From: a virus
Taxonomy: Duplodnaviria > Heunggongvirae > Uroviricota > Caudoviricetes
DNA: 47,890 nt
IMG/VR virus record: IMGVR_UViG_2671180896_000002
Reading direction: 5' to 3' (one strand)
Shown here: piece after piece, positions 7,868-35,995 of the stretch
How positions within the stretch are numbered: position 1 is the first letter of the stretch
Layout of the letters: every line of letters begins with the position of its first letter
The notes under the pieces: model-generated
What the model was told of the DNA's origin: nothing
The model's input: the letters and a program-made list of their open reading frames with translations, nothing else
The model's database searches: none
Program-made: the position numbers and the translations under genes

Positions 7868-8205
7868 CAGATCACCACTTCGTCAAACTGACACGAAAAA
7901 TCGGTATAGGTGATATGTTCTGTCGCTGACCACGTTCGACACACCACTCTGATTTTTCTGTTAATACCCGGCGGGCGCCAAAAAAAAGATTTATAGCCTT
8001 CATGCCGGGCTAAAAATTTTTCAAATGAATCACGTTCATTCGCCTCAACTTTGAAATCACAGGTGAAAACGCGCAGAGAATGATTAAGTCCATTTGGACT
8101 TCGTTGCTCATAACCATCGCCAAATCTTACAGTTTTTATCGATGGTTTATTTTCTGTTTTCATTCCATCCTCTGGTAACCAGTGAAATTCTTCCGTATTA
8201 GCCAC
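7867..8205 (-). CDS. Minor tail protein M-like (divergent from lambda M)
   Basis: 112-aa ORF between H and L containing the [10 protein letters not shown] motif shared with lambda gpM (VRFGDGYSQR); locally AT-rich DNA, start/stop overlaps with H and L. Confidence 0.7.
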
Positions 8206-17279: not shown

Positions 17280-18395
17280 TTAAATCCCTGCTTTTCTGAA
17301 TACCTGTGCATCACGCTCACGGAGCTGCTTCAGCGTCAGCCATTCGCCTTTATCGGTGTAAAATTCATCTGGCGACATACCACCATCCCGAATCAGCTTT
17401 GCTCGGGTTTCCCCCACAATCTGTTTTTGTCTGGTGTAAGGCTGACGCAAAAACCATTCCCTGTAGGTTGTATCTCCGGCCACCACGCCATCCATGCTGG
17501 CCCGCTCAGCCGGGGAAATATCGCGAACATCAATACCCAGTTCCTTCGCTGATTTCAGAATGAACGTTTCCGTTGAGCGGCAGCAGAAATGAATTTTTCC
17601 CGGCCCCTGCAAATAAGGCACGCTGTGACCTACAGGTTTATTATTCAGCGTATATTTGAGGCGATCCCTGATTCGACATTGTGGCGTAGTACGATTATCA
17701 AGCGTTGATAACCATTGCTTACCCTTAATCAAATCATTATTCGCGCTGGCAAAACTCTCACGGGCAGTAGCAGCAAGATGTCCAACCGCTGTTTTTGCAA
17801 TGCTGGCCGCATTAGCCCGGCTCATCTGCAATGCACCATCCTGAAATCCCTTACTGACATGTCCCCGAATTTTTCTTGCGATCTGCTCATTGGTATCCCC
17901 CAGCAAAAAACCCTGACGCACTGTATTTGTTATGCGTCTGAGCCGATCCGCCTCAAGATCTGAGGCCCACTCACTGAGCAGTCGTCCCTGGAATGGTCGC
18001 GCCATTGCAGCGGCATAAAGTGCATCAGGAGAGATACCAACCAGAGGGTGAACATCAGCAACAAAATCAGGTAGCATAGAATCAAACAGACTTAACTGAT
18101 AACCAGCCTCATAAATTGCCAGCTCGTTCAGCTCTCCGGAGAGACTGGTAAACATGCTGTTAATAGCAGTGCGGTTAACCTTTCTGACGCTCGCCAGAAG
18201 TGACTCCAGGCGCTTAACGGTAAAATTACCTGGATCGAGGCTGTCCAGTGCTATCAGCAGGCGAGCAGTAAGTTCCGCATCGCTGTCATTCAGTATTTTC
18301 ACCATTCTGGCAGCCACGCCAGTGCTATAGCGGGATATCCAGACTGCATGAGCAATTGATTCATCACGCAGCCGTTCATTCACGGTTTGCATCAT
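17280..18395 (-). CDS. Minor head protein, Mu gpF / SPP1 gp7-like head morphogenesis protein
   Basis: 371-aa ORF directly downstream of and overlapping the portal gene; the portal then minor-head-protein order is typical of SPP1-like headful packaging modules. Confidence 0.6.
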   Translation of the reverse strand: MMQTVNERLRDESIAHAVWISRYSTGVAARMVKILNDSDAELTARLLIALDSLDPGNFTVKRLESLLASVRKVNRTAINSMFTSLSGELNELAIYEAGYQLSLFDSMLPDFVADVHPLVGISPDALYAAAMARPFQGRLLSEWASDLEADRLRRITNTVRQGFLLGDTNEQIARKIRGHVSKGFQDGALQMSRANAASIAKTAVGHLAATARESFASANNDLIKGKQWLSTLDNRTTPQCRIRDRLKYTLNNKPVGHSVPYLQGPGKIHFCCRSTETFILKSAKELGIDVRDISPAERASMDGVVAGDTTYREWFLRQPYTRQKQIVGETRAKLIRDGGMSPDEFYTDKGEWLTLKQLRERDAQVFRKAGI

Positions 18396-19782
18396 TGATT
18401 TCCATCAGCATTACACTCTGATTTTTTAATTCATCGATCACTTCCTCTGGACGGGAATCCTGATCGATAAATTTCAACGCCTGCAACACCCGAACCGCAT
18501 CAATCTGACGTATATCACCGCCCTGACGCAATGACTGAACAGCCAGCGCGGAGGATGAGTCAAACACCTGGGCAGATACATCCAGTTCAGTGCGCACATC
18601 CACATTGCCACCGCAACTCTCTCCGATCCATTCCGCCATTATCTGGAGAATATTATCGAGGGCATCTTCGAGGGAGTTCGCCATTGTATAAAGCGGCGAG
18701 TTTTCCTGCATTCGCTCTTCATTAGTCTGATCAACAGATTTGGTGGATGTATTTTCAGCACGCAGAAGTTTAGCGCCGGCATGACGCATCTGATTTTCCA
18801 GCTTCTCAAGTGATGTTTCGCCAGATTCTATCGCTGCGCCACTATGTTCAACATATTCGAGGCCATTTTTTATTCTGTCCTCAAAAATCGTAGCGGTGGA
18901 TGCACCAACCGTCAGTTCTTCATTCCTGTCCAGCCCGTAGGCCACCAGCAATGGAACGCGGGCAACATGAAGAATATTGTCCTGCTCGCTCTGGCTTTGC
19001 CAGTGCTTGATATTCAGCAAGCCAAGATTAAGCAATGGCGGTGTACCACGCATAAATCCTGTTTTCTTCGTGTACAGTGTTACCAGAGGAATATCATCAC
19101 GGCTGGTATTCCATGACTCATGAAGCGTCCAGACAGATTCGCCATTAGTGCCTTCGCTACGTCGATAAATTTCAACTCGACGGGGCATAATATGGCGGAT
19201 CTGCTCCACCTTCTTCTGCCCGAAATCATCACCATCAATAATGATGACCTCTTTTATACGCAAATCAGTGAGAACAACTTTCCCTTTTTCAACTTTCGAT
19301 TTCCATCCAATAACCTGGCGTGGATTCAGCATCGTAACGTACGGACGACCACCGGTCGCGTTTTCATCGGCTTTTGTACGAATCTCTTTCATATCCGTTC
19401 GTGGATAGTCCACCAGCGCATGTGCCACACCATACTGAAATGCGAGGCTGAAAAATTGCTGCGCCCACACATCCAGTCGGCTCCCCTCCATGTCGATATT
19501 TTCTGCATATTCCCTGATTTTTGCCGGCGTTTCCTCACTCAATACTGTCGGCTCTGCAAATATGCGCCCAATATTTTGCTTGATGCTTTCTTCATACACA
19601 GGAAGTAGCGTAGCCACAGACAGGCGTTTTTTATAAGCGTCTTCATCTTCGTTAGGCCATTTTGGGAGATAATTTTCCCCCTGCCTGCGCATTTCAAGGG
19701 TACCGCCCATCAGTGCGTCGTTAATATCCCACGCCTCCAGCATATCGTTATAGTCGAGGTTGGGTGTTGATATATCAGCCAT
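18376..19782 (-). CDS. Portal protein
   Basis: 468-aa ORF immediately downstream of the large terminase gene (3-nt gap). Confidence 0.75.
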   Translation of the reverse strand: MADISTPNLDYNDMLEAWDINDALMGGTLEMRRQGENYLPKWPNEDEDAYKKRLSVATLLPVYEESIKQNIGRIFAEPTVLSEETPAKIREYAENIDMEGSRLDVWAQQFFSLAFQYGVAHALVDYPRTDMKEIRTKADENATGGRPYVTMLNPRQVIGWKSKVEKGKVVLTDLRIKEVIIIDGDDFGQKKVEQIRHIMPRRVEIYRRSEGTNGESVWTLHESWNTSRDDIPLVTLYTKKTGFMRGTPPLLNLGLLNIKHWQSQSEQDNILHVARVPLLVAYGLDRNEELTVGASTATIFEDRIKNGLEYVEHSGAAIESGETSLEKLENQMRHAGAKLLRAENTSTKSVDQTNEERMQENSPLYTMANSLEDALDNILQIMAEWIGESCGGNVDVRTELDVSAQVFDSSSALAVQSLRQGGDIRQIDAVRVLQALKFIDQDSRPEEVIDELKNQSVMLMEINDANRE

Positions 19783-19784
19783 AA

Positions 19785-21095
19785 TTAAATCCGAAGTGAT
19801 GTGACTCTTCCGGTCGGTTTGACAATAGGGAATTGCTTAACGATGAAATAACCTCCGGCATCATTCGGGTGATCATTGCCAGATTTTTTATCAGGCTCCC
19901 CCTTCTCATCCCAGACCTGTTGCTCCAGAGATTCGGCATATAACGGGCAACGCTTCACATTAACTTTATAGCGACGCTCACCATTGGCATTGCAGAACAT
20001 TGCATTCATTGAGTTAACGCGATCTTTTACTGGCGGGTTCGAGCTGTTCACCACAACGTTAAAACCAGCCTGCTTAAGCTGGGCTATATCCGTCGTACTT
20101 GCGTTACTTGATTTTCTGGAATCCCCGGAAGCATCTGGATAAATATAAATTTCCCTCACTTTCCGGTAATCATTCCCATCATACAGCCAGAAGCGTTCTT
20201 TAATGATGCGGATCATATCCGGCGTATCGTAGGCATTGATGATTTCAGTTACCGCACATGGAAGCCCCAAACGCAGCACATGGACGATTCCCGCCATCTT
20301 TCCAACGTTAAAATCCATCCCAATATAAATCGGCTCCCCTGGCTGCTCCACTTCTTCGCAATTATTCAGTTTCCGGTCAAACTGATGGTAAACAGTACCA
20401 CTTGTCAGGTTAGTAAACTGTCCTCGAAGATAGGCTTTAATCAGCTCTGGAGGGTATGATTCAAGAAGCGAAGGAATGTAATCTGCTGGCAGGTTCTTTT
20501 CATTATCGAAAGTAGATGCCTGCACCAGACCATACAGTGAGGCCAGCTCTGTTTTTTCACGCACGGCTTTAACAAACTGCTCGTAGACAAATTTGAATCC
20601 TTCCGGCGTGGTTGTAACGTCAATACCGTTGCGAAGTCCATCAATCTTATAACGCATACGTGCAATTATCTTGCGCCACGCCGTTCTGGCTTTTTCCTTC
20701 GGCAAAATGTCCAGTTCATCCACCAACGCATTACCAATTTTGAAACCGACGATCGTTTGTGGCTTCTCCATCGATCTGCAGATAGTGGTTCCCCGATACT
20801 GGCGTCCGTAATAAAAGTGAACCTCTTTATTTCCCTCATTAATTTTTACGTTCAATCCCCAGTCAGCAGCAACTTCTTCCACTGTAGGGTAAAAAATATC
20901 GCGAATTTGGGGATACGTTGGCGCAAAATATCCCTGATTTATACCTGGATGCTCCCAAATCCCCTTGCATATGCCGCCACACCCAACCCATGTTTTGCCC
21001 GAGCCAAAACCAGCAATATAGGCTTTAAATTTATGGGGCATTGAAAGAAATCGCGCCTGAGGCACATTAAGCGTCGGAGAGATCATCTTCATCAC
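19785..21095 (-). CDS. Terminase large subunit
   Basis: 436-aa ORF with Walker A-like motif (AGFGSGKT) near the N-terminus; start overlaps the end of the small-subunit gene. Confidence 0.85.
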   Translation of the reverse strand: MMKMISPTLNVPQARFLSMPHKFKAYIAGFGSGKTWVGCGGICKGIWEHPGINQGYFAPTYPQIRDIFYPTVEEVAADWGLNVKINEGNKEVHFYYGRQYRGTTICRSMEKPQTIVGFKIGNALVDELDILPKEKARTAWRKIIARMRYKIDGLRNGIDVTTTPEGFKFVYEQFVKAVREKTELASLYGLVQASTFDNEKNLPADYIPSLLESYPPELIKAYLRGQFTNLTSGTVYHQFDRKLNNCEEVEQPGEPIYIGMDFNVGKMAGIVHVLRLGLPCAVTEIINAYDTPDMIRIIKERFWLYDGNDYRKVREIYIYPDASGDSRKSSNASTTDIAQLKQAGFNVVVNSSNPPVKDRVNSMNAMFCNANGERRYKVNVKRCPLYAESLEQQVWDEKGEPDKKSGNDHPNDAGGYFIVKQFPIVKPTGRVTSLRI

Positions 21096-22161
21096 TCCTT
21101 ACTCTGGCATCAACCACATTAATATTGATCGCCACAGGCTGGGGATGTTCATTATCTTCCACCGTTTCGATCTCTTTGCGCAGCTTCTGGTTTTCCATTC
21201 TGCGCCGTTCAATTTCCAGTTCCTGTAGCCGTTTATCTGCACATAAAGCCCCGCCAGCAGAAAACAAACGCAACAATTCACGCCGGGCGGCAGCCTTATC
21301 CTCCAGCAGGATCTCAACGCCGAATTTTCCGAATTTTGCCCCTGCATATAATTGCCGCGCATCCCCATCAAGCAGAGTGGTATCAGCCATATAAAGCTGT
21401 CCCGTTCCCTCACCGCAGCACTTCGGGCAGTCCGGATTGGGTATGGCGTTATCAACAAAGCCGAGGCCTCCATATTCCGGTTCGGGTTTGCCATCTCTGG
21501 AAGCCTGCGCCGCTGCCTTGTCGAATTCTGCTATATCGCGCCACTGGTAGAGATGATTCTCGCCCCAGCAATAACGGCAGTTAACACGGCGAAATTGTGC
21601 AAGCTGATTGGGGTCGGCCAGGACAATAGCCATCAACTGACTCACTAGTAAATCCAGGTCTGCGGTATAGCGTTTCTGGTACTGATTGCGGAAGTAGCTG
21701 ATAGCGCGAAAAACCCTGGCATTTCTAAGCATACGACTGGCGTTGCTGTTAGCTGTCGCACCTTGCCCCTCATAACCGGCTAGTCGGTACGCCTCTGTCG
21801 GCTTTTTACCCTGAGCAACAAGCATCGCAAACTTAGCCTGCTGGTCAGAAATGCCGAATTCATCGGGACAGAACGAAAATTCCTCCGCGTCGCCCTCATT
21901 CAGGCCCGCATCGAATACTGGCTTTTTTTCCTGAGATTTTTCGTTCCGCTTTTGTGCAGTCTGCGCAGATTTTTTCTGCGCACTTTTTTGCGCAGTTTTG
22001 CACATTTCTGTCTGCGCATTTTTCGGAGTTTTTTTGATGTAACGACGGGCTGTTGCGTAATTCAGTCCCCTTGCTTCACACCATGCCACCGGAGATATAC
22101 CGGAGCGGGTGTATTCAGCAATATACTCCTGCTGCAACGCCCCCCAGTCCGGTCTGCTCAT
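21067..22161 (-). CDS. Terminase small subunit (Terminase_2-like)
   Basis: 364-aa ORF with N-terminal HTH-like region and the segment FAMLVAQGKKPTEAYRLAGYEGQGATANSNASRMLRNARV typical of terminase small subunits; overlaps TerL start. Confidence 0.7.
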   Translation of the reverse strand: MSRPDWGALQQEYIAEYTRSGISPVAWCEARGLNYATARRYIKKTPKNAQTEMCKTAQKSAQKKSAQTAQKRNEKSQEKKPVFDAGLNEGDAEEFSFCPDEFGISDQQAKFAMLVAQGKKPTEAYRLAGYEGQGATANSNASRMLRNARVFRAISYFRNQYQKRYTADLDLLVSQLMAIVLADPNQLAQFRRVNCRYCWGENHLYQWRDIAEFDKAAAQASRDGKPEPEYGGLGFVDNAIPNPDCPKCCGEGTGQLYMADTTLLDGDARQLYAGAKFGKFGVEILLEDKAAARRELLRLFSAGGALCADKRLQELEIERRRMENQKLRKEIETVEDNEHPQPVAININVVDARVRSDEDDLSDA

Positions 22162-22164
22162 CAG

Positions 22165-22416
22165 TTAGTCCTGATTTTTATCCACCCTGAGTAGTTCGCG
22201 CAGAGCAAAGGCATCCCCTTTTCTGGCAAGCTTAAACAATGCCGCTCGTAACTCGGCTTCACCTTTCGCTCTGCCCTTACGGATGGCCGCATAAAAATCT
22301 GTCATTGCTTCCCGATTTTCTTTCAGTCGGTTCAGATCAACATCCAGAACGTCAGCGATTTGTTGTGCAGTCATCCGGCACGCTGCCAGAGACTCGACTT
22401 TCGAATACGGAATCAT
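22165..22416 (-). CDS. Small putative DNA-binding (HTH) protein
   Basis: 83-aa ORF (possible internal start at MTAQQIADVLDV...) just upstream of TerS; overlaps the 3' end of the upstream ORF. Confidence 0.4.
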   Translation of the reverse strand: MIPYSKVESLAACRMTAQQIADVLDVDLNRLKENREAMTDFYAAIRKGRAKGEAELRAALFKLARKGDAFALRELLRVDKNQD

Positions 22417-23305
22417 TTGTCACCCCCATTGATATGCAGGGTGTCTTCTTCCTGTATTTTTCGTGAAGGATTTTTACTGCAGCGTTGTTCCAGGTGACCT
22501 GATGGTGAATGCGTTTATGGCTGGCACCCATCAGTGAGATTTTTACGCACGACGGCGCATACATGACGGAGTAAAAACTTTTAACGTAGGTTCCGGAATC
22601 CAGATATAGCTCGGTCATTCCGCCGCTGTTTTTCTGCGTCTGTTTCTGCCCTAACTGGACAGCACCGATCGTCATAAACAATTCACCACAGCGACCGAGA
22701 TTCGTGTACGTATTCACATCCTCGTTAATGCGCCCCATGAATGAGAACGGTCGATCAACCGAACAGATAAAGCTGTTCATTGCCTTGCGTTTCACCCACG
22801 AAGCATGGCCGCCATTGTCACCAAGAAAATCCCCGCCCTGCGACATAGCGATGGAAAGAGCAGGTATTGATTCGTAGTACGCCAGCATTTCAGAAAGGAT
22901 CGCATCCAGTTTCCTTATCGGAAAATAGGCCTGGTCATAGTTGCGATCCACCCGAAACTGGAACTCGTGATAATCATCATCGAGCTGAATGAAGTATTTA
23001 CACCCGACCAGTTTTGCCAGGTCGAAACAGGCATTACGGGCGTAAAAAATTGAGCGGCGGTCACAGAAATTATCGGCTTCGTCAAAACGACTGGCGATAT
23101 CGGCTTTGGAAAACACCAGCACCTGTTCACCAAATTCAGCCATGTACTGATTCCGTGTCTTATCTTCATCATCAACAACGATAAAAATTTTCCCGGTATA
23201 GCCAGCACGACGCAACGTCCGGTAAGTCAGAACTTTGTCCGGTCGCCCGTGAGTCAGAATAAAGGCGCAAAAATCATCACGCATATTCCTCCTCCTCACC
23301 ACCAT
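22352..23305 (-). CDS. Hypothetical protein, 317 aa, function unknown (possible nucleotide-binding/transferase-like fold)
   Basis: ORF translationally coupled to the upstream ParB-like gene; contains FIVVDDEDK and LDDDYHEF acidic motifs; no confident family assignment possible by eye. Confidence 0.5.
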   Translation of the reverse strand: MVVRRRNMRDDFCAFILTHGRPDKVLTYRTLRRAGYTGKIFIVVDDEDKTRNQYMAEFGEQVLVFSKADIASRFDEADNFCDRRSIFYARNACFDLAKLVGCKYFIQLDDDYHEFQFRVDRNYDQAYFPIRKLDAILSEMLAYYESIPALSIAMSQGGDFLGDNGGHASWVKRKAMNSFICSVDRPFSFMGRINEDVNTYTNLGRCGELFMTIGAVQLGQKQTQKNSGGMTELYLDSGTYVKSFYSVMYAPSCVKISLMGASHKRIHHQVTWNNAAVKILHEKYRKKTPCISMGVTNDSVFESRVSGSVPDDCTTNR

Positions 23306-24068
23306 GCATGATCTCCACCATGCGCTGCGTCATCCGGACAAATCCATTTTCAATAGCCTGCTGATAATCAATGATCACCAGCGCCGACTCCTCGAAAAAA
23401 CACTGAATTTCAGAGGGGGCGTGAGCGTAATAGTCCGCAATTCTGCTGAAATTAAACACCGTGTGACGTTCTGCCGCACACAGGAGGAATTTCTCAATAT
23501 CAGGCTCAAGGGACGCCGAACGTATCCGGCTGATCAGCTCCTGAGTTTTCGTATCGTCGTACAGTTCACTGATATCCGGTTTACCGCCCGACGGCTCATA
23601 AACAGGCGTATCAATTTTCGTCGTATACGGCTCCTCCTCATTTCCTGTACCGGGCAAAACATCCGTCAACAGTTCATCAATTTCTGTCGGGATGAAGCCT
23701 GTCAGGGAGACATCAAAATCAGCATTGATTAGGTCCGACAGCTCCATCCGCAACAGATCTTCATCCCAGCCAGCATTCATCGGCAGGCGATTATCTGCCA
23801 GGCGGTACGCCTTTTTCTGCTCATCCGTCAGGCCAGACAGAACAATGACCGGAACAGAATCCATTTTGAGCATTTCAGCCGCCATAACACGACCGTGACC
23901 CGCAATAATTTCGCCCTTTTCGTCAATCAGCACCGGATTAGTCCAGCCGAATTGCTTAATACTTTCTACCAGTTGTGCCACCTGCTCAGGGCTGTGCGTC
24001 CTGGCGTTGTGCGCATACGGTGACAATTCTTGTAATGGGCGATAGACTATCTTTAATTTCTCGCTCAT
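23277..24068 (-). CDS. ParB-like nuclease domain protein
   Basis: 263-aa ORF with N-terminal segment LIDEKGEIIAGHGRVMAA resembling the ParB/Srx-fold GxxR box; acidic C-terminus. Confidence 0.6.
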   Translation of the reverse strand: MSEKLKIVYRPLQELSPYAHNARTHSPEQVAQLVESIKQFGWTNPVLIDEKGEIIAGHGRVMAAEMLKMDSVPVIVLSGLTDEQKKAYRLADNRLPMNAGWDEDLLRMELSDLINADFDVSLTGFIPTEIDELLTDVLPGTGNEEEPYTTKIDTPVYEPSGGKPDISELYDDTKTQELISRIRSASLEPDIEKFLLCAAERHTVFNFSRIADYYAHAPSEIQCFFEESALVIIDYQQAIENGFVRMTQRMVEIMHGGEEEEYA

Positions 24069-24205
24069 ACAGCCTTGCTTTATGAATAAAACGCACCCCA
24101 GCAGCCAGTGCTACTGGGGACGGAGGGGTTGCTGGTAAAGTTAGGTATTGGATCAATGAGTGAGTCAACATAATATTAAACTCACAATTATAAATCAGCC
24201 ATATA

Positions 24206-25663
24206 TTAGGAGCGCCAAAAAAAACCTGAAAACAATATAATAACAGGATAAATTTCAAGGCGACCAAGAATCATAGCTATGCACATTAAACATTTTGCAA
24301 TGTCATTAAGCACTCCGAATGACGATGCAGTAGCCCCAAAACCTAATCCCATATTATTAATACATGCAGCCACTGTTGCAAATGATGTAAGAAAATCATA
24401 TCCCATACCATTTAACACCAGTATAAAAAACACCGTGAAGAGAGTATAAAGAAAAAAGAAACTCCATACAGACCTCATTACACGATCTGTAACTATCTTC
24501 CCTCCTACATTTACACTCAACAACGCTCTGGGATGAGAAAGCTGATTTATCTCGTGTTTGCTTTGTTTGAAAAGTATAAGAAATCGAAGTGACTTAATTC
24601 CACCACAAGTTGAACCTATACATCCCCCAAAGAAACTTGACAACAGCAAAAACACTATCGTGTGCGTGGGCCAACTTGCATAATCCTGCGTAGCTAAACC
24701 ATTATCAGTGAGCATGGAGCTGGCAAGAAAAAACGAATGAATAAAACTTCCATGCAAGTCATACATACCTATATGCCAGACCTGGAAAGAGGTAACAATG
24801 ATCACCCCTAAGGCTATTAACAGAAAGAAACGAAGTTCAATATCTCTGATTAAAGGTTTTATCGTTTTCCTGCTAATAACAATATACCAAAGAGTGAAGT
24901 TGAAAGCCGATAGCAGGGAAAAAGAACCAGCCACCAGCTCAACCAAATAGTTATTAAAATATCCGATACTCTCGCTATGAGTTGAGAAACCACCAAGCGA
25001 AACTGTGGAAATCCCGTGACAAATAGCATCAAACAAAGGCATTCCTGCAAGTCTATAACAGACAATACAAGCAATACCTAATAAAGAATAAGTTATCCAC
25101 AGTGTCCGTGACGTATCGGCCAGGCGGGGAGTGAGTTTGTCATCCTTAAATGGCCCCGGCATTTCTGACTGATAAAGCTTTGCACCACCAATACCCAATA
25201 ATGGCAATACAGCAACCGCCAGAACAATAACTCCTAAACCACCTATAAAATTTAACTGTGACCGATAGTACAAATATGCCCGAGGTAATGAACTAACATC
25301 ATCAATTACAGTTGCTCCTGTTGTTGTTATTCCAGAAACCCCTTCAAACAGAGCATCAATGAACGTTAAATTAAGTTCTGAGTCAATCCATAAAGGGAAT
25401 GCACTAATAACAGAAAACAAAATCCAAAACATTACAATTATAATAAACCCATCACGGGTACGTAATTGAATGCCAGATTTCTTAGTTGTATACCACGCTC
25501 CGCCACCAATGCAAAAAAATATAACGAAAGTTATAAAGAAAACGAACAGGCTTTTTTCTTTATAAAACAATGCTACAACCATTGGTGGCAACATTGAAAG
25601 ACTATAGAGCCAAACCAGGAACCCACACATATGAGTAACAACTCTTACATGAGATGTATTCAT
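24206..25663 (-). CDS. trkG: Trk-system potassium uptake protein TrkG (TrkH/KtrB family)
   Basis: 485-aa polytopic membrane protein from MNTSHVRVVTHMCGFLVWLYSL...; recognisable as Rac prophage TrkG; gene is markedly AT-rich. Confidence 0.9.
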   Translation of the reverse strand: MNTSHVRVVTHMCGFLVWLYSLSMLPPMVVALFYKEKSLFVFFITFVIFFCIGGGAWYTTKKSGIQLRTRDGFIIIVMFWILFSVISAFPLWIDSELNLTFIDALFEGVSGITTTGATVIDDVSSLPRAYLYYRSQLNFIGGLGVIVLAVAVLPLLGIGGAKLYQSEMPGPFKDDKLTPRLADTSRTLWITYSLLGIACIVCYRLAGMPLFDAICHGISTVSLGGFSTHSESIGYFNNYLVELVAGSFSLLSAFNFTLWYIVISRKTIKPLIRDIELRFFLLIALGVIIVTSFQVWHIGMYDLHGSFIHSFFLASSMLTDNGLATQDYASWPTHTIVFLLLSSFFGGCIGSTCGGIKSLRFLILFKQSKHEINQLSHPRALLSVNVGGKIVTDRVMRSVWSFFFLYTLFTVFFILVLNGMGYDFLTSFATVAACINNMGLGFGATASSFGVLNDIAKCLMCIAMILGRLEIYPVIILFSGFFWRS

Positions 25664-25800
25664 ATCTAAATATTCTTTCAATTATAACCACCTTGCTGCA
25701 ATATTATGATTATACTGTATAAAATTTAACTCCTCTTAGATCTTACTTCACTGTTCCTTATGAAACAATCATCAAAATGAATCATATTGTAGTTAAGATT

Positions 25801-27225: not shown

Positions 27226-27621
27226 CTAACCTCGCATGTCAAAGCCAGATTTCTGAAAATCTCTGTAGACTTCCGGATTGTTGAAGGCCGGAAATTTGGC
27301 TTTATGAGCTGCGGACTTTATCGCTTCGCAATAGGCTTTATCACCGTTACTGGTAGATATTTTTAACGCCGTGCCATCCTGAGAGAATTCCATATGCAAC
27401 CTGCATTTTTTCCCTTTCCAGTTATGCGGCTCATCAAGTTTGGCATTAATTGCAGCTCTGATTCCCCGCGCTTGCGCCCCCCATTCATCCTGATCATCCC
27501 AGCGTCCTGAACTGCAACTACCTGTAGCAGTAGTTTTGTGGCAATCTGAAGGGTGTAAAGGTGTGCATCCCGCAACAAAACCGACCCAAAAAGTCAACAT
27601 AACGATTTTCTTTAATCCCAC
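27226..27621 (-). CDS. Lipoprotein with TolA C-terminal (domain III)-like region, paralog 1
   Basis: 131-aa ORF; signal peptide plus lipobox (FVAGC); C-terminal KGKKCRLHMEFSQDGTALKISTSNGDKAYCEAIKSAAHKAKFPAFNNPEVYRDFQ follows the same pattern as paralog 2 and TolA domain III. Confidence 0.6.
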   Translation of the reverse strand: MGLKKIVMLTFWVGFVAGCTPLHPSDCHKTTATGSCSSGRWDDQDEWGAQARGIRAAINAKLDEPHNWKGKKCRLHMEFSQDGTALKISTSNGDKAYCEAIKSAAHKAKFPAFNNPEVYRDFQKSGFDMRG

Positions 27622-27771: not shown

Positions 27772-28200
27772 TCAGGGTTTAAAATCCAGCACCCCATTTT
27801 GAAATACTTTATATACTTCCGGCGAAGGGGGGGCAGGTATATCAGCATTCTTTATCGCATTCATCGCTTCACGACATAAATCGAGGTCTCCACTTTCTCT
27901 TTTAACCTCCAGTAGAAGGCCATTCGGGGCCATATGCATTCTCAGTGTACACTCTTTTCCTGAATACTTACTCGCATCCCCGAACTGTTTTTCGATGGCG
28001 CTCTTGATTTGATGGGCATACAGACGGATATCCTCACTAACATCAGAAGTACGTTCAGATGAACTCACATACTGTGTCTCTATTGCTTTATCGGAGTAAT
28101 ATGATGTACGGTCATGATAATTTGTCGATACAGCATCAGTGCACCCGATAATAATCCCACTAATAATCAACGTAAGAATTGATGCGCTACGAAAACCCAT
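27772..28200 (-). CDS. Lipoprotein with TolA C-terminal (domain III)-like region, paralog 2
   Basis: 142-aa ORF; lipobox (IIGC); C-terminal YAHQIKSAIEKQFGDASKYSGKECTLRMHMAPNGLLLEVKRESGDLDLCREAMNAIKNADIPAPPSPEVYKVFQNGVLDFKP closely resembles the C-terminus of E. coli TolA as I recall it (...YAGQIKSAIESKFYDASSYAGKTCTLRIKLAPDGMLLDIKPEGGDPALCQAALAAAKLAKIPKPPSQAVYEVFKNAPLDFKP). Confidence 0.7.
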   Translation of the reverse strand: MGFRSASILTLIISGIIIGCTDAVSTNYHDRTSYYSDKAIETQYVSSSERTSDVSEDIRLYAHQIKSAIEKQFGDASKYSGKECTLRMHMAPNGLLLEVKRESGDLDLCREAMNAIKNADIPAPPSPEVYKVFQNGVLDFKP

Positions 28201-29244: not shown

Positions 29245-29787
29245 TCAAGCCATTTTCTCAGCAAATGATTCACGCATGGGAATATATAGGGCATACTCAG
29301 CAACAGCTAACCAATTAGCAATCCGTTTTTCGCATGTGCTAAAACACCACTCTGGGTGTGCATCATTTAGCAATTCAGCCATTTTGCGCTTAGTCATCCC
29401 CCGCCCTTCATAGCGTTGCCGGAGAATGCAAATCAATCCTGGATGCTCTGCCAGCACCTCACTTATGACTCGATCAATACATAACGCCTCTGCATCAGTA
29501 CAATGCGCCAGCCAGCTCTTTTGCTTGCCGTTGATCATCTCTCGCAAAAACGCTTCCAGCTCAGCTTTCTCTATTCCCGCTTTTTTCATTCTGCGCAGGG
29601 CTTCATTAATGGCTGTTTTCGTCAGTTTTTTGGATGCCAACAACTGATTGAACATATTCCCTGACCTGCCACCGCCAATATACGACCAGCGCCCCCACAT
29701 ACGTAGTTTTCCCTGAATCCAGACACTTTCCAGCGTGGTGAGGCGAAGGTGTTCTCCGCTTTTTCCTGTATTCGTTGGGTAAATCAT
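29245..29787 (-). CDS. Putative late-gene antiterminator (Q-like) by position; family not identified
   Basis: 180-aa ORF with Cys pairs (HCTDAEALC, EWCFSTCEK); last gene of the nin-like block, followed by terminator hairpin, morons and the lysis cassette, the position lambda Q occupies. Not lambda-Q-like in sequence. Confidence 0.4.
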   Translation of the reverse strand: MIYPTNTGKSGEHLRLTTLESVWIQGKLRMWGRWSYIGGGRSGNMFNQLLASKKLTKTAINEALRRMKKAGIEKAELEAFLREMINGKQKSWLAHCTDAEALCIDRVISEVLAEHPGLICILRQRYEGRGMTKRKMAELLNDAHPEWCFSTCEKRIANWLAVAEYALYIPMRESFAEKMA

Positions 29788-31173: not shown

Positions 31174-32292
31174 GTGCCGATGAATTACTCTCACGATAAC
31201 TGGTCAGCAATTCTGGCCCATATTGGTAAGCCCGAAGAACTGGATACTTCGGCACGTAATGCCGGGGCTCTAACCCGCCGCCGCGAAATTCGTGATGCTG
31301 CAACTCTGCTACGTCTGGGGCTGGCTTACGGCCCCGGGGGGATGTCATTACGTGAAGTCACTGCATGGGCTCAGCTCCATGACGTTGCAACATTATCTGA
31401 CGTGGCTCTCCTGAAGCGGCTGCGGAATGCCGCCGACTGGTTTGGCATACTTGCCGCACAAACACTTGCTGTACGCGCCGCAGTTACGGGTTGTACAAGC
31501 GGAAAGAGATTGCGTCTTGTCGATGGAACAGCAATCAGTGCGCCCGGGGGCGGCAGCGCTGAATGGCGACTACATATGGGATATGATCCTCATACCTGTC
31601 AGTTCACTGATTTTGAGCTAACCGACAGCAGAGACGCTGAACGGCTGGACCGATTTGCGCAAACGGCAGACGAGATACGCATTGCTGACCGGGGATTCGG
31701 TTCGCGTCCCGAATGTATCCGCTCACTTGCTTTTGGAGAAGCTGATTATATCGTCCGGGTTCACTGGCGAGGATTGCGCTGGTTAACTGTAGAAGGAATG
31801 CGCTTTGACATGATGGGTTTTCTGCGCGGGCTGGATTGCGGTAAGAACGGTGAAACCACTGTAATGATAGGCAATTCAGGTAATAAAAAAGCCGGAGCGC
31901 CCTTTCCGGCACGTCTCATTGCCGTATCACTTCCTCCCGAAAAAGCATTAATCAGTAAAACCCGACTGCTCAGCGAGAATCGTCGAAAAGGACGAGTAGT
32001 TCAGGCGGAAACGCTGGAAGCAGCGGGCCATGTGCTATTGCTAACATCATTACCGGAAGATGAATATTCAGCAGAGCAAGTGGCTGATTGTTACCGTCTG
32101 CGATGGCAAATTGAACTGGCTTTTAAGCGGCTCAAAAGTTTGCTGCACCTGGATGCTTTGCGTGCAAAGGAACCTGAACTCGCGAAAGCGTGGATATTTG
32201 CTAATCTACTCGCCGCATTTTTAATTGACGACATAATCCAGCCATCGCTGGATTTCCCCCCCAGAAGTGCCGGATCCGAAAAGAAGAACTAA
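31174..32292 (+). CDS. insL: IS186 transposase (IS4 family, DDE)
   Basis: 372-aa ORF (M)PMNYSHDNWSAILAHIGKPEELDTSARNAGALTRRREIRDAATLLRLGLAYGPGG..., recognisable as IS186/IS421 transposase; sits inside the inverted repeats. Confidence 0.9.
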   Translation: MPMNYSHDNWSAILAHIGKPEELDTSARNAGALTRRREIRDAATLLRLGLAYGPGGMSLREVTAWAQLHDVATLSDVALLKRLRNAADWFGILAAQTLAVRAAVTGCTSGKRLRLVDGTAISAPGGGSAEWRLHMGYDPHTCQFTDFELTDSRDAERLDRFAQTADEIRIADRGFGSRPECIRSLAFGEADYIVRVHWRGLRWLTVEGMRFDMMGFLRGLDCGKNGETTVMIGNSGNKKAGAPFPARLIAVSLPPEKALISKTRLLSENRRKGRVVQAETLEAAGHVLLLTSLPEDEYSAEQVADCYRLRWQIELAFKRLKSLLHLDALRAKEPELAKAWIFANLLAAFLIDDIIQPSLDFPPRSAGSEKKN

Positions 32293-32485: not shown

Positions 32486-32641
32486 TTACTCCCCAAGTTC
32501 GTAAGCTGTGAAGACAGCGACCTCCGTCTGGTCGGTTCGGATTCGTACCTCGCAGAGGTCTTTCCTCGTTACCAGTACCGTCACTATAACGGTTAAACAG
32601 ATGACGATCAGGGCGACTAACATCGCCTTTTGCTGCTTCAT
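32486..32641 (-). CDS. hok: Hok/Gef-family type I toxin (small membrane toxin)
   Basis: MKQQKAMLVALIVICLTVIVTVLVTRKDLCEVRIRTDQTEVAVFTAYELGE (51 aa), near-identical in pattern to HokD/RelF and HokC; the supplied ORF extends in frame upstream to 32698. Confidence 0.85.
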   Translation of the reverse strand: MKQQKAMLVALIVICLTVIVTVLVTRKDLCEVRIRTDQTEVAVFTAYELGE

Positions 32642-32970: not shown

Positions 32971-34029
32971 ATGAGTTTCCTTTCTGAACAAGACGTACAA
33001 AATTTAGTCATTAATAAAATGATCTTTCACGTTGTAGGTAAGAATCTTGAAGCACCGACACTTCTCAAAGAAATAAAACCAGTTCAGCATGTGGATTTTT
33101 TTCTTGAACGTATCAAATCTTCACTGAAAGGAAATCTTTTCACTTTTCTGGAGAATTCAAATACCGAAAGAATCCTGCGTATCATTAGAGATAAAGCAGA
33201 TGCTGAAGCTAATTGTTTTACAGAACAATCGAAGCTACTGGCCAGTGATTTTCAGTCACACCATTCTAGCGGTAACACGAGTATGGGATGCTTTTTCTTA
33301 TTTGAATTGGTTTCAGATAAGGAAAAATTATATGCAATTATAAAATACGATAATGAAGATGTGGTTCGTTATGTTCTTGACGAAAAGTTATCTGAAGAAC
33401 AAATGCCTACTTTAGAAAGATTTCATGAAACTTTCGTAAAAAAAGCTGAGGCAATGCAAAAAATAGCGTTAATTCAACTTGATCCAAGTGGGAAAGGCGG
33501 GAAAGTTATTGTAAAAGACAGGAGTAAAAGAACCAATATTTCAGGATATTTTAAAGGCTTCTTAAATGTTAAAAGAGTCAACTCTGAAATTGAACTTTGC
33601 AATAAGCTTATTGATGCGCTGAAAATAACCTTCAAAAGGCATAAAGAATTATTACCAGAGTCAATTCAAAAAAGCGGCGTAAATAAAATATATGAAGTTT
33701 TAAGCAGAGCTGATTTCGAATATAATCCTGAAGATGCTTCTCCGTTATTGACCAGCATTTTTGGGCCGTTAGATGAAAAATCACCAATTCTCAACACATT
33801 CAAAACTCAAACAAAAAATGCTGGTATTGAAGGCGAATCCTTTACTGTAAAAGCAGATGGCATTCATAAACCACCAAGACGAAAAATTGAAACTGCAGAA
33901 AGTGTAGTAATTAGTTATAATGAAGATGACCGTCCAGAAATAAGAAACTTAGATGATGGGCGAAAACAAATTATTGTTACTACTGCGAGGATTATTACTG
34001 ATGACATCGATACTTCAAAAAATCGATGA
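32971..34029 (+). CDS. NdpA/YejK (NA37)-like nucleoid-associated-protein-family protein, 352 aa
   Basis: ATG with GGAG SD; motifs NKMIFHVVGKN, MGCFFLFELVSDKEKLYAIIKYD and ISGYFKGFLNVKRV parallel YejK motifs (ALHQLIK, GGFVLFCHYRYLAVEYLL, YLTFLKGRVGRKV) as recalled; AT-rich gene on the strand opposite to flanking phage genes. Confidence 0.55.
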   Translation: MSFLSEQDVQNLVINKMIFHVVGKNLEAPTLLKEIKPVQHVDFFLERIKSSLKGNLFTFLENSNTERILRIIRDKADAEANCFTEQSKLLASDFQSHHSSGNTSMGCFFLFELVSDKEKLYAIIKYDNEDVVRYVLDEKLSEEQMPTLERFHETFVKKAEAMQKIALIQLDPSGKGGKVIVKDRSKRTNISGYFKGFLNVKRVNSEIELCNKLIDALKITFKRHKELLPESIQKSGVNKIYEVLSRADFEYNPEDASPLLTSIFGPLDEKSPILNTFKTQTKNAGIEGESFTVKADGIHKPPRRKIETAESVVISYNEDDRPEIRNLDDGRKQIIVTTARIITDDIDTSKNR

Positions 34030-35434
34030 GTCTATACAGGCGTCAAGGAAAGACCCTGAATTTTTGGCATCAGAATCAATAAAAAATGATTCTGCGCGCG
34101 TTCTAATTTCTGCCAAAATGGACAAAGATGCACTCATTCTTTGGCAGTACGTTTACGAAAACGTACCAAATTGGATTGAAATTACTGTTAAAGATGACTG
34201 TAATGACGAAGTAAAACCATCGTCATGCAGTGAAGGTGATAAACTTAACATTACGCTAAAATGCATTGCATTCGAAAATAACAGGTATATTTTTACGCTC
34301 GAAGGGTGGAATGTTTTTCTACACAATGATGATTTAGTATCAATAACCAATAAAGTGAATATTCTCGGTTTGAAACATGGATTTGAAACTTTAGGATATT
34401 CTGTTGAGCCATGGAACCATGCTCCAGAAAAAATTGAACCTAATGAAACCGTACGAACTTCAATCAATTTACAGAGCTACGTTAAATTCTATTCTAGTGA
34501 GTTCATGCCTGCATCTGATATAGCTCCTTGGGTACTTTATAAAATGCCTGAGGCAGAGGACAACTTTTTCAAAAAATGGTTACAAGTTTCCTGCAATATG
34601 CTTTGTCGCACTCTCGTTAATGAATTATTAGCAGATGAAAAGAAATCAATTTGTTTAACTGGAAAGCCACCAAAAAAATTAATTTATGGAGATCCAGACA
34701 TTCTGCTTTCCGACTATTCAGTTTTACAAACTGTAATAAACTGGATCTTTATTGAGGGCAATGAGATTGAACTCAAACATACTTTCTTCACAAGTGAGTT
34801 AGCACGAGAATGGCCAGAGTATGTATCCTTCTGTGAGGGTTTACCAAAAAAACTCCCTATGGCCTTTGAGTCAGCAAAATTACTATATAAGGCCCACATT
34901 CGCGCTAGCAGCAGAGAGACTATTAAATCTCTGTCCGATCTAAGGAAAACCTTAGCTGAAGACACGCAAAAAATAATAAGTCAGTCTAAAGACATCACAT
35001 CCGCTCTTTGGAAAGATCTGGCTCTGGTTATAAGTCTATTTGCAATAAAATATGCGCTAGACGCATCAAAGATTAATATAACCAATAACATATTCCCATA
35101 TATGTTCTTCGCGTTATCTATATATATTTTTATATCTCAGGTTACAACTCTCTTCATAAATAAAAATTACTTTAAGATACTTGATAATACTAGGCTAGTC
35201 TGGAGAGATAAACTATATGGTTTTCTTGATGATACTGACTATGAGAATCTTGCAGTCACACCATTAAGAGAGGCATACAAAGCTTATCAGATTATAGCCA
35301 CATTCGTTGTGATTCTGACTTTGCTGATTTCATTTATAATGATCATATTAGGATTCTCAATGCTTGATGAACATGCTACGAATGCAATTACCTCTTGGCT
35401 CAGTTCTCACTTAATCAATAGTTACTGTAGTTAA
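34001..35434 (+). CDS. Membrane protein, ~477 aa: N-terminal soluble domain plus three or more C-terminal transmembrane helices
   Basis: Start ATG 34001 (MTSILQKIDESIQ...) overlaps the upstream gene by 29 nt (supplied ORF begins at 33953); C-terminal hydrophobic segments LALVISLFAIKYAL, IFPYMFFALSIYIFISQVTTLFI, IIATFVVILTLLISFIMIILGFSML. Confidence 0.6.
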   Translation: MTSILQKIDESIQASRKDPEFLASESIKNDSARVLISAKMDKDALILWQYVYENVPNWIEITVKDDCNDEVKPSSCSEGDKLNITLKCIAFENNRYIFTLEGWNVFLHNDDLVSITNKVNILGLKHGFETLGYSVEPWNHAPEKIEPNETVRTSINLQSYVKFYSSEFMPASDIAPWVLYKMPEAEDNFFKKWLQVSCNMLCRTLVNELLADEKKSICLTGKPPKKLIYGDPDILLSDYSVLQTVINWIFIEGNEIELKHTFFTSELAREWPEYVSFCEGLPKKLPMAFESAKLLYKAHIRASSRETIKSLSDLRKTLAEDTQKIISQSKDITSALWKDLALVISLFAIKYALDASKINITNNIFPYMFFALSIYIFISQVTTLFINKNYFKILDNTRLVWRDKLYGFLDDTDYENLAVTPLREAYKAYQIIATFVVILTLLISFIMIILGFSMLDEHATNAITSWLSSHLINSYCS

Positions 35435-35464: not shown

Positions 35465-35995
35465 TCAACGGTAATAGATACAACCTGCAATAAATCCCAT
35501 TGCCATTTGCATTTTTTTCCTTATTTTACCATCTGAACATTCGTTTATCTTAGCTAAACAACGCAATGAAACTCTCATAACAAAATGAGCGATAATTAAC
35601 TCATAGTCATCTATCCTATATTGTTTAAGCCTCAACATGCAGGTATCAATTATACCCCCTTCATCATTGCTGCACTGACGACGTGATTTTTTACCATGAG
35701 GAACAACATTTTTATATTTATCAGCTATTTCCTGCCAATCAATAGAACTATTTTCAGCTACAGCCCAGGCTCCCCAACCGTCCAAAATATCATATATATT
35801 AGCATTGCTATCTACCTGTTTTTTATATTCTTTTTTGAAGCGCGCAAGAAGCATCCTAGCCATCGTTATTATTTCTATACTTGTAACTGATTCATAAGCA
35901 TCAGGAGAAATAATTCTCCCATCACTTAATGCCCCATCACTAAGATTTGCTATTTCCAATAATCGTTCTTTAGTTATTTCCATTATTATCTCCAC
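35465..35995 (-). CDS. Q-like antitermination protein (QuuD / Phage_antitermQ-like family)
   Basis: Contains DGWGAWAVAEN...KKSRRQCSNDEGGIIDTCMLRLKQ...CLAKINECSDGKIRKKMQMAMGFIAGC matching the WGAWA and Cys-pair pattern of DLP12 QuuD as recalled; start may be an internal Met (MARML..., 35863); AT-rich. Confidence 0.5.
   Translation of the reverse strand: MEIIMEITKERLLEIANLSDGALSDGRIISPDAYESVTSIEIITMARMLLARFKKEYKKQVDSNANIYDILDGWGAWAVAENSSIDWQEIADKYKNVVPHGKKSRRQCSNDEGGIIDTCMLRLKQYRIDDYELIIAHFVMRVSLRCLAKINECSDGKIRKKMQMAMGFIAGCIYYR

Follow-up and report, generated by a model that had tools for sequence, protein, structure and literature searches.

Here, we propose that two intact, overlapping genes on the minus strand of a Rac-type E. 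coli prophage, lying between trkG and the terminase genes, encode a late-expressed, two-subunit DNA glycosyltransferase that would modify phage DNA before packaging. We offer this reading tentatively, giving it slightly less than an even chance. The enzyme is a TAGT protein by family membership, fold and motif, its linkage to the C-terminal domain (CTD) of a ParB-like protein is strict in both directions, and the position of the cassette is equally a matter of observation. Throughout, the window is the whole 47,890-nucleotide stretch of viral DNA that was analysed.

The first gene (23277..24068, minus strand; 263-aa ORF) encodes a ParB/Srx-CTD protein, the full-length form of K-12 'ynaK', and the second (22352..23284, minus strand; 310 aa) a TAGT-family GT-A glycosyltransferase, whose longest ORF covers 22352-23305 (317 aa). 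The preliminary description had placed two overlapping ORFs between trkG and TerS/TerL, and these coordinates and the minus strand bear it out. Ahead of the pair stands the trkG moron (24206-25681; PF02386, E 5e-145), with a terminator-like hairpin (24096..24119, minus strand; 10-bp stem, 7 GC pairs, T-rich tail; a consensus match only) lying 3' of it and 28 nt before the ParB-like start codon. Directly downstream of the pair, in the same orientation, is a block (18376..22161) of TerS (21067-22161, minus strand), TerL (19785-21095, minus strand) and portal (18376-19782, minus strand) genes, all named by PGAP and the first two also having terminase profile matches (Terminase_2/6N/6C set).

At the gene junction (23277..23297, minus strand), a Shine-Dalgarno-like GAGGAGGAGG (23297-23288) precedes an ATG at 23284 and the ParB stop codon TGA (23279-23277). 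The overlap is 29 nt if the glycosyltransferase starts at the ATG at 23305, as in the longest ORF, and 8 nt (ATGCGTGA) if it starts at the ATG at 23284 (M8). Judging from the sequence, the latter start, giving 310 aa, is more likely, because GAGGAGGAGG lies just 5' of it and both the homologue starts and the PGAP start coincide with it; the resulting 8-nt overlap would be compatible with translational coupling. Both genes are real and not chance ORFs, since 867 of the 5426 complete E. coli genomes (~1 in 6) carry the pair in full and each protein has thousands of homologues. The cassettes of E. coli SE11 and strain M1 are 100% identical to that of the window, and K-12 keeps a remnant.

A small third ORF between the glycosyltransferase and TerS genes (22165..22416, minus strand; 83 aa; PGAP start 22374) had been omitted from the preliminary description. 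It encodes a TerS-like HTH protein (phrog_309 'terminase small subunit', E 8.3e-23), extends into the glycosyltransferase gene at its non-conserved 3' end, and has counterparts, with similarity judged by eye, at the equivalent position in other loci (for example L067:8844-9293). It is probably one of the packaging genes.

The 317-aa protein had been described as belonging to no assignable family; it can now be placed in Pfam TAGT (PF20691), at 121 bits against a cut-off of 27.5 (E 8.4e-35, profile positions 4-205 of 205), and in phrog_842 (E 1.2e-103). Its AF2 model (pLDDT 88, pTM 0.84) is a compact alpha/beta GT-A fold. The protein does not fall into an unrelated structural or packaging family, the outcome that would have counted against the preliminary description. 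Foldseek matches the model to GT2-type GT-A structures in the PDB and to viral TAGT models in BFVD (TM 0.77-0.86); by sequence, neither the 317-aa protein nor the TAGT and CTD profiles retrieved anything usable from the PDB. The motif residues are R21, D44-D45-E46-D47, D109-D110-D111 and N194-E195-D196, and among 51 homologues R21, D109-D110-D111 and N194-E195-D196 are conserved, with D109-D111 nearly invariant and the last ~30 aa showing no conservation. The acidic stretches FIVVDDEDK and LDDDYHEF, thought meaningful at first sight, do occupy conserved positions and are the GT-A catalytic signature. An R…DDD…EDY/F motif is known for phage GT-A DNA glycosyltransferases (bioRxiv 10.1101/2023.12.21.572611), and the third motif of the window enzyme reads EDV versus the ED(Y/F) described. 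The 310-aa protein is thus a TAGT family member by profile, by its GT-A fold and by its R…DDD…ED motif, which is intact. RefSeq and UniRef call it a 'GREB1-related protein'.

Among the homologues, tandem TAGTs occur, as do fusions of TAGT to SAM-methyltransferase and sulfotransferase domains, and at some loci a histidine-phosphatase and a cytidylyltransferase, possibly serving donor synthesis, are inserted or fused. These fusions and insertions point to genuine sugar chemistry. In five Firmicutes loci, a radical SAM gene, which matched no particular subfamily, follows the TAGT gene.

The 263-aa protein is very acidic (net charge -25, pI 4.5; homologue median charge -22) and matches PF02195 at 28.9 bits (cut-off 26.3) and phrog_620 at E 8.5e-91; its cluster, P0123, has 1812 member sequences. 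By both superfamily profile and fold it is a ParB/Srx protein. The N-terminal, NTP-binding-type ParB/Srx domain (aa 1-135; 23664..24068, minus strand) carries box I (N21-x-R23), box II (G57-H-G-R60) and box III (D92-N93), and R23, G57-H-G-R60 and N93 align with the Spo0J QPR, GERR and EN motifs, which predicts nucleotide binding, with the box II arginine being absent in some homologues (GNGV in L012, L022 and L045). A linker motif follows, YTxKIxxPxYEP (aa 148-159; 23592..23627, minus strand), which is predicted to be disordered (pLDDT < 50 for aa 137-156) and in which Y148, P155 and Y157 are invariant across 58 partner proteins. Because it is conserved yet unstructured alone, the linker probably folds on a binding partner, as far as the structure prediction can tell; more generally, the most conserved segments of the protein are those predicted to be disordered when alone. 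The CTD (aa 140-263; 23280..23651, minus strand), comprising a helical core (aa 165-230), the motif SALVIID..AIxNG and an acidic tail, is a very acidic stretch of ~125 aa with no Pfam family and no solved relative in Pfam and PDB searches. Pfam also gave no HTH match and no recognisable DNA-binding domain in the partner protein.

Several names attached to these genes are misleading. 'Partitioning protein' is one, because the match to the partition-ParB model TIGR00180 (38.5 bits against a cut-off of 58.45) is below threshold and confined to the N-domain, the protein has no HTH, and the prophage has no parA. The preliminary description took the ParB-like protein for a nuclease, which is only the historical name of the domain; nothing in the data points to a nuclease, and we know of no agreed nuclease catalytic signature for the ParB/Srx fold. 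PGAP, and likewise RefSeq, annotates only the first 86 codons of the intact partner ORF, as a 'ynaK' pseudogene, and phage pipelines give the enzyme a T-even name.

The association between the two proteins is strict. Starting from TAGT, the CTD is the immediate upstream neighbour, in the same orientation, at all 77 genome loci with upstream sequence (frame-disrupted in 2 of the 77), and these loci span many phyla. Starting from the CTD in IMG/VR, TAGT lies downstream in 80 of 80 viral loci, immediately so in 75 and after one inserted gene in the other five. Both genes are found together in the same phage records, and the non-redundant pairs number ~115, too small a set for inter-protein covariation. 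The preliminary description had missed which part of the ParB-like protein is the conserved partner: many phages encode the CTD without ParB_N, and in many homologous cassettes that domain is missing while CTD and TAGT persist. The universal partner of TAGT is therefore the CTD and not ParB_N, which is an optional add-on and must be dispensable for the core reaction. Among the proteins retrieved, none is a complete ParB-TAGT fusion: of two candidates, P0081 is a partial CTD+TAGT protein that may be an assembly artefact, and P0221 joins ParB_N to only a short C-terminal TAGT fragment.

The cassette usually stands at the head of the packaging operon. Of 53 non-Escherichia loci scanned, ~40 have a large terminase as the first large same-strand ORF downstream, and phage c5, a cos phage, begins with the pair on the far side of its cos site, as genes one and two. 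CTD-only cassettes also occur beside DNA polymerase, primase and RecA genes (L085). PADLOC returned no defence-system match, bar that of ParB_N to a methyltransferase model.

In light of this arrangement, what might the pair do? In the reading we prefer, the 310-aa protein would be the catalytic GT-A enzyme, using a nucleotide-sugar donor through its DDD/ED site, and the 263-aa protein its obligatory non-catalytic partner. The CTD may bind the enzyme in a physical complex, activating or positioning it, with the YTxKIxxPxYEP linker and the SALVIID segment folding onto the enzyme, where the predicted docking site is the clade-specific C-terminal region of TAGT (aa 230-287). The optional ParB/Srx N-domain may link the enzyme to DNA or place it under nucleotide control, a role suggested by analogy with the ParB-like activators of phage thymine dioxygenases. 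From its place at the head of the late packaging operon, the pair would reach phage DNA that has already been replicated, shortly before it is packaged or while packaging proceeds. Virion DNA carrying sugar adducts would then enter the next host, and restriction or other nucleic-acid-targeting defences would be blunted, giving the cassette an anti-defence role. That DNA is the sugar acceptor is suggested by the ParB_N subtype of the partner, which hundreds of phages carry as a fusion to a DNA methyltransferase, by the ParB-dependent dioxygenases, by the replication-gene neighbours and by the T2/T6 TAGT. Counting against a DNA acceptor are the strongly acidic character of the partner, with no recognisable DNA-binding domain, the many cassettes that lack ParB_N, and the precedent of GREB1, a TAGT-family member that glycosylates a protein (PMC7968844). 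Our literature searches found no experimental work on this TAGT clade, and what such TAGTs do is described as 'yet-to-be defined' in a paper from 2026 (PMC13216743).

The DNA reading also has to accommodate the precursor. No 5mYOX/TET, pyrimidine hydroxymethylase or DNA methyltransferase gene is annotated in the whole prophage or in the complete phages c5 and phi jlb1, and Pfam scans of 16 window ORFs, mostly from the cargo, regulatory and replication region, detected none. Likewise, no 5-hydroxymethyl-pyrimidine source is annotated within 10 kb in L085 and L087. A hidden dioxygenase was considered and none was found by Pfam (16 ORFs) or PGAP names, by which a very divergent one could escape. 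With no precursor-making enzyme annotated, the known TAGT acceptor would be absent; and if no 5-hydroxymethyl-pyrimidine is made, the acceptor, if DNA, must be a canonical or host-methylated base. We know of no precedent for direct GT-A glycosylation of canonical DNA bases. It is unlikely, in our estimation, that the CTD-TAGT pair attaches sugar to canonical DNA, or to DNA bearing only Dam/Dcm methylation, in a direct reaction that bypasses any hydroxymethyl-pyrimidine. If it did, this would be a DNA sugar modification whose chemistry, to our knowledge, has not been described before, carried by hundreds of viral contigs, by thousands of homologues across Bacteria and by at least one haloarchaeal virus, and the acidic ~125-aa CTD would represent a novel type of subunit on which a glycosyltransferase depends.

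The main rival is that the TAGT enzyme glycosylates a protein and not DNA, with the partner being its substrate or adaptor and not a DNA-targeting subunit, which we regard as rather unlikely. The acceptor could be the enzyme's own partner, for example at the invariant Tyr148/Tyr157 of the disordered YTxKIxxPxYEP, or a packaging, virion or host protein. O-GlcNAcylation of ERalpha by GREB1 (PMC7968844) favours this option, as does the lack of an annotated DNA precursor pathway in the prophage, c5 and phi jlb1. Also in its favour, the invariant Tyr/Pro motif lies within a disordered, very acidic protein; against it, Thr149 varies (Ala in L068). Two TAGT paralogues after a single partner gene (L061, L079) would fit chain extension on one acceptor, whereas in L142 the partner is fused to donor-synthesis-like domains, better understood as a scaffold than as a substrate. 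Among the weak fold matches are GT-A enzymes that glycosylate proteins or peptides (SunS/ThuS, collagen GalT, glycogenin), but the matches are generic to GT2-like enzymes (TM ~0.4). Also speaking against a protein acceptor are the sharing of the ParB_N subtype with DNA methyltransferase fusions and the presence of the cassette among replication genes.

A second alternative is TarP/Gtr-like remodelling of a cell-surface glycan (LPS, teichoic acid or capsule), leading to superinfection exclusion or seroconversion. In its favour, the enzyme has a GT2-like GT-A fold that matches TarS, RmlT and K4 chondroitin polymerase. On the other side, the model is compact (alpha/beta, GT-A), and the annotations of the window, c5 and phi jlb1 show neither a flippase nor a Gtr-like membrane partner near the pair. 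Fusions to sugar-tailoring-like methyltransferase and sulfotransferase domains and the cytidylyltransferase-like gene inserted at some loci are also in its favour; against them stands the strict coupling to a ParB/Srx-type partner. The cassette, moreover, sits in the late/packaging operon and not among lysogeny genes, and is found too in c5, whose genome record has no integrase or repressor gene. The hosts include Gram-negative and Gram-positive bacteria, CPR and those of haloarchaeal viruses, and 45-57% identity over such a span implies an acceptor that they all share. We therefore consider a surface glycan quite improbable.

Weakest of all, and very improbable, is the view that the ParB-like protein is a nuclease or a pac/cos-site factor aiding terminase (HNH proteins assist terminase in HK97-like phages), with the second gene incidental: the position directly upstream of TerS/TerL at most loci and the old name 'ParB-like nuclease' favour it, but many cassettes keep CTD and TAGT without ParB_N, the large terminases downstream belong to four different, unrelated families of both cos and headful types, which is unexpected for a site-specific packaging factor, the L085 and L087 cassettes adjoin no terminase, and the conserved enzyme of the pair is a glycosyltransferase. 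Among the three functions first offered for the pair, DNA modification and anti-restriction are thus favoured and a packaging accessory is not.

Glycosylation of phage DNA is a classic counter-defence, so far understood only in cases that begin with synthesis of a hydroxymethyl-pyrimidine. According to recent papers, many phages have 'solitary' TAGT-type enzymes of undefined function, and ParB-like genes accompany DNA-modification clusters. What is added here is the invariable link of one large TAGT clade to a particular partner domain of ~125 aa that had not been described, the optional nature of the ParB domain, and the place of the cassette, first in the packaging operon of small phage genomes with no annotated precursor pathway. 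As the cassette is intact in about one-sixth of complete E. coli genomes, the question of the solitary-TAGT acceptor is testable with two genes in E. coli.

How does the pair compare with known systems? The T2/T6 beta-glucosyl-HMC-alpha-glucosyltransferase, a TAGT enzyme that adds sugar to DNA (PMC13216743), resembles the window enzyme in belonging to PF20691, in its GT-A fold and in its phage origin. The T-even enzyme, however, extends the glucosyl-5hmC provided by a hydroxymethylase and an alpha-glucosyltransferase, neither of which is annotated in the window prophage. The T-even label of PHROG 842 comes by transfer from a remote relative and is rejected for the window enzyme: a tblastn search with it at 1e-5 gave no T-even phage match, and a CTD-seeded search of the phage collection at E 1e-3 gave no T-even record. 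The enzyme of Klebsiella phage PKO111 is similarly remote (13% identity, TM ~0.6). GREB1, the animal TAGT-domain protein, is of the same Pfam family; it differs in being a large eukaryotic protein that modifies ERalpha and has no ParB or CTD partner.

Two further relatives are the GT-A enzymes encoded in phage 5mYOX/TET clusters and the glucosyltransferase that makes base J in trypanosomes, which share with the window enzyme the GT-A fold and the R…DDD…ED(Y/F) motif. With those enzymes DNA is modified after replication, and ParB-like and terminase genes frequently lie close to theirs (bioRxiv 10.1101/2023.12.21.572611; PMC8256090). They use 5hmC or 5hmU from an adjacent dioxygenase, with or without a C5-methyltransferase, whereas the window clade occurs in genomes where no such enzyme is annotated. 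For the partner, a parallel is ParB176, which is experimentally required by the phage thymine dioxygenase 5mYOX176 on dsDNA (PMC13229309). Both proteins combine an NTP-binding-type N-domain with a C-terminal domain (likened by architecture only), have no obvious DNA-binding domain and adjoin a modification-type enzyme. That neighbour is a dioxygenase for ParB176 and a glycosyltransferase here, and in window-type partners, unlike the ParB176 setup, the C-terminal domain alone often suffices. Finally, fusions of ParB_N to DNA methyltransferases occur in phages and prophages (PMC12704722), and those of phrog_498 and PADLOC MTase_II PDLC03229 have the same ParB_N subtype as the window (E 1e-50 and 2e-38; 30-54% identity). 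In the phrog_498 type the effector is fused and is a methyltransferase, whereas in the window ParB_N is fused to a CTD adaptor and the glycosyltransferase is a separate protein.

We propose that the ParB-like gene (23277-24068, minus strand, 263 aa) and the gene that follows it (22352-23284, or from 23305 in its longest form) encode the two subunits of a glycosyltransferase produced late in infection, which is the best-supported reading of the pair. The preliminary description had reported both ORFs and their overlap correctly, but found no family for the 317-aa product, which can in fact be placed with confidence in Pfam PF20691 (TET-associated glycosyltransferases, TAGT; 121 bits, cut-off 27.5) and also matches PHROG 842 (E 1e-103). 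Structure prediction, suggested there as a check, yields a GT-A fold: the AlphaFold2 model (51 aligned homologues) is confident (pLDDT 88, pTM 0.84), close to viral TAGT models (TM 0.77-0.86) and only remotely like solved GT2-type enzymes. The predicted pI of the enzyme is 8.6.

The junction, read directly, is GAGGAGGAGGAAT-ATG-CG-TGA, with a Shine-Dalgarno-like run ending 3 nt ahead of ATG 23284 and the stop of the ParB-like gene at 23279-23277. Because the start at ATG 23284 is common to homologues and the PGAP call, the second protein most likely has 310 aa and the overlap 8 nt; the 317-aa reading, with an overlap of 29 nt, is merely the longest ORF. Of 5426 complete E. coli genomes, 867 carry the whole cassette and 1619 at least part of it, the 'ynaK' of K-12 being a remnant of the first gene. 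In PGAP/RefSeq no more than 86 codons of the intact 263-codon gene are entered, as a pseudogene 'ynaK' flagged 'incomplete; missing C-terminus', a miscall that probably stems from the truncated K-12 YnaK as reference. About 525 nt of its coding sequence are left without annotation, likewise at loci L001 and L082.

The link between the two proteins holds in both directions. A TAGT-seeded scan, limited to a single genome for each species, gave 80 loci of 46-57% identity from Proteobacteria, Bacteroidota, Firmicutes, Planctomycetota, Verrucomicrobiota, CPR and others, and a homologue of the ParB-like partner lies directly upstream on the same strand in all 77 with upstream sequence (frame-disrupted in 2). 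In at least 8 loci the upstream protein is about 130 aa long and corresponds only to residues ~140-263, the C-terminal domain (CTD), without the ParB/Srx N-domain (ParB_N). A CTD profile search found 3501 proteins, the top 120 all being stand-alone ~130-aa proteins without Pfam annotation. In the reverse test, a CTD-seeded scan of IMG/VR gave at least 596 matching stretches, and TAGT is directly downstream of the CTD in 75 of the 80 loci returned for reading. In the other five (L138, L148, L150, L153 and L160, e.g. L160:5208-6173) a single inserted gene codes for a protein that joins a histidine phosphatase to a cytidylyltransferase-like domain, and at L142:6739-8418 these domains are fused to ParB_N-CTD itself; this gene may represent a dedicated nucleotide-activated donor pathway. 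In a curated phage collection the CTD-bearing records are a subset of the TAGT-bearing ones and include prophage-derived phages of E. coli and Salmonella, Lactobacillus phages, 191-kb Vibrio phages, Nocardia phage NTR1 and Haloarcula virus HHTV-2.

The CTD (residues 140-263) has no Pfam family, PDB relative or fold match, and holds every invariant residue of a 58-partner alignment, with the motifs YTxKIxxPxYEP, AAxRHxVFNY and SALVIID..AIxNG followed by an acidic tail. The most conserved segments, aa 137-156 and 234-263, are the very ones that AlphaFold leaves unplaced in the isolated protein, which would fit folding on a partner. The whole protein is very acidic (net charge -25, pI 4.5). ParB_N keeps its putative nucleotide-binding positions (R23, G57-H-G-R60, N93) and belongs to the subtype that many phages carry in fusion with DNA methyltransferases (phrog_498, E 1e-50; PADLOC MTase_II, E 2e-38; 496 phage records, many with methylase annotation). 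A partition ParB was rejected, as the protein falls below the TIGR00180 cut-off and lacks an HTH, and the prophage has no parA.

What, then, might the enzyme glycosylate? We lean tentatively towards DNA, at a little under an even chance, because the known chemistry of the TAGT family is on DNA (PMC13216743; bioRxiv 10.1101/2023.12.21.572611), the ParB_N subtype is common to DNA methyltransferase fusions, and phage thymine dioxygenases require ParB-like activators on dsDNA, as a 2026 study found (PMC13229309). Going by where the cassette lies, the late-made enzyme would glycosylate phage DNA ahead of packaging, and the glycosylated DNA would be better shielded from restriction once in the next host. 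Among non-Escherichia loci, 53 have an ORF of 350 aa or more downstream on the same strand; in about 40 of these it is a large terminase and in several others a portal. The terminases span four families (Terminase_6N, Terminase_3, GpA and TerL_ATPase). The pair forms ORF1 and ORF2 immediately past the cos site of cos phage c5 (31.8 kb) and is upstream of TerS in phi jlb1. Some CTD-only cassettes lie among replication genes (at L085, DNA polymerase A, primase, RecA and helicase), and a minority of cassettes overall adjoin C5 and N6/N4 DNA methyltransferases, SSB or a radical SAM enzyme. In Firmicutes prophages the last, of ~320 aa, lies between TAGT, directly upstream, and TerS (L057:8881-9840, L061:8836-9825, L062:2695-3630, L065:8849-9790, L076:2095-3084); it is MoaA/SPASM-like, yet under every NCBIfam cut-off.

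Several points count against DNA. The known TAGT acceptor is 5-hydroxymethyl-pyrimidine or its glucoside, and neither TET/5mYOX dioxygenases, pyrimidine hydroxymethylases nor DNA methyltransferases are annotated across the complete prophage (by PGAP name, in agreement with a Pfam search of 16 of the window's ORFs), in c5 and phi jlb1, whose genomes are complete, or within 10 kb at L085 and L087; the phages checked would thus appear not to make that acceptor. We know of no precedent for GT-A glycosylation of canonical bases. The acidic partner has no recognisable DNA-binding domain, ParB_N is dispensable, and GREB1, a TAGT-family member, glycosylates protein (PMC7968844). These points temper our confidence in DNA and leave glycosylation of a protein as the next, rather unlikely, alternative. 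Surface-glycan remodelling is distinctly improbable, and a packaging or nuclease role, for all the nearby terminases, most improbable of all. That the pair hides a new DNA modification chemistry is a genuine, if minority, chance. TAGT paralogues are sometimes tandem, or carry an added domain of the class I SAM-methyltransferase or sulfotransferase type, and one partner protein has a weak Methyltransf_23-like region at its N-terminus (P0248, P0249, P0283, P0285, P0267, P0268; L063:3581-5275; L031:189-1739); this hints at decorated or oligomeric glycans.

The window is identical (100%) to NZ_CP115361.1 positions 2543644-2591533, a Rac-type lambdoid prophage of E. coli that has intR at one end and the tail-fibre genes and pinR at the other, with ttcA adjoining the integration site. 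Its minus-strand late order is lysis genes, trkG, the ParB-like gene, the 317-aa ORF, a small TerS-like ORF, TerS, TerL and portal. The trkG moron (24206-25681, minus strand, about 39% GC) ends in a strong terminator-like hairpin (24119-24096, minus strand), 28 nt before the ParB-like start codon, through which late transcription would have to pass. The TerS-like ORF (22165-22416, minus strand, 83 aa) has a match to small terminase subunits in their HTH portion (phrog_309, E 8e-23). It lies directly upstream of the 364-aa TerS, whose N-terminus may therefore be split or duplicated, and it overlaps the glycosyltransferase gene at that gene's non-conserved 3' end. Small proteins similar to it by eye come after TAGT elsewhere, e.g. 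L067:8844-9293. The low-GC island at 32971-35434 (about 34-36% GC) carries two overlapping genes, one for a 352-aa NA37-type nucleoid-associated protein and one for a protein of 477 aa without a match in Pfam or PADLOC; it adjoins genes for an IS421 transposase (31180-32292) and a hok/gef product (32486-32641), and could be a cargo or defence module. The IS and this low-GC insertion part two antiterminator-Q-type genes (29245-29787 and 35465-35983). One product is a DUF1133 protein whose match to Phage_antitermQ is borderline, the other belongs to the Q family, and the late-regulation region may therefore be mosaic or duplicated. Between the late regulators and the genes for lysis stand two paralogous genes of the TolA C-terminal-domain lipoprotein-like kind (27226-27621, 27772-28200), one of them partial according to PGAP. 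A tail protein gene (7866-8205) is frameshifted per PGAP in the identical record, so the prophage tails may not be fully functional.

'Solitary' TAGT homologues of 'yet-to-be defined' function were reported in 288 of 753 GT-encoding phage genomes (PMC13216743), and ParB-like and terminase genes as frequent neighbours of phage GT and 5mYOX genes (bioRxiv 10.1101/2023.12.21.572611). The obligatory ~125-aa partner domain is not described in the literature searched, and neither are its occurrence as a stand-alone protein, the linkage in both directions between it and this TAGT clade, or a consistently unannotated precursor pathway in small complete genomes. The PHROG-derived name 'beta-glucosyl-HMC-alpha-glucosyltransferase' is an over-transfer, as the enzyme is remote from those of T-even phages: these are absent among tblastn matches at 1e-5, and its model matches one T-even-type enzyme in structure with only 13% identity. 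Its columns conserved among 51 homologues include R21, D109-D110-D111 and N194-E195-D196, matching the R…DDD…ED(Y/F) signature of phage GT-A DNA glycosyltransferases (bioRxiv 10.1101/2023.12.21.572611), in which LDDDYHEF, flagged earlier as an acidic DxD-like motif, is the catalytic motif.
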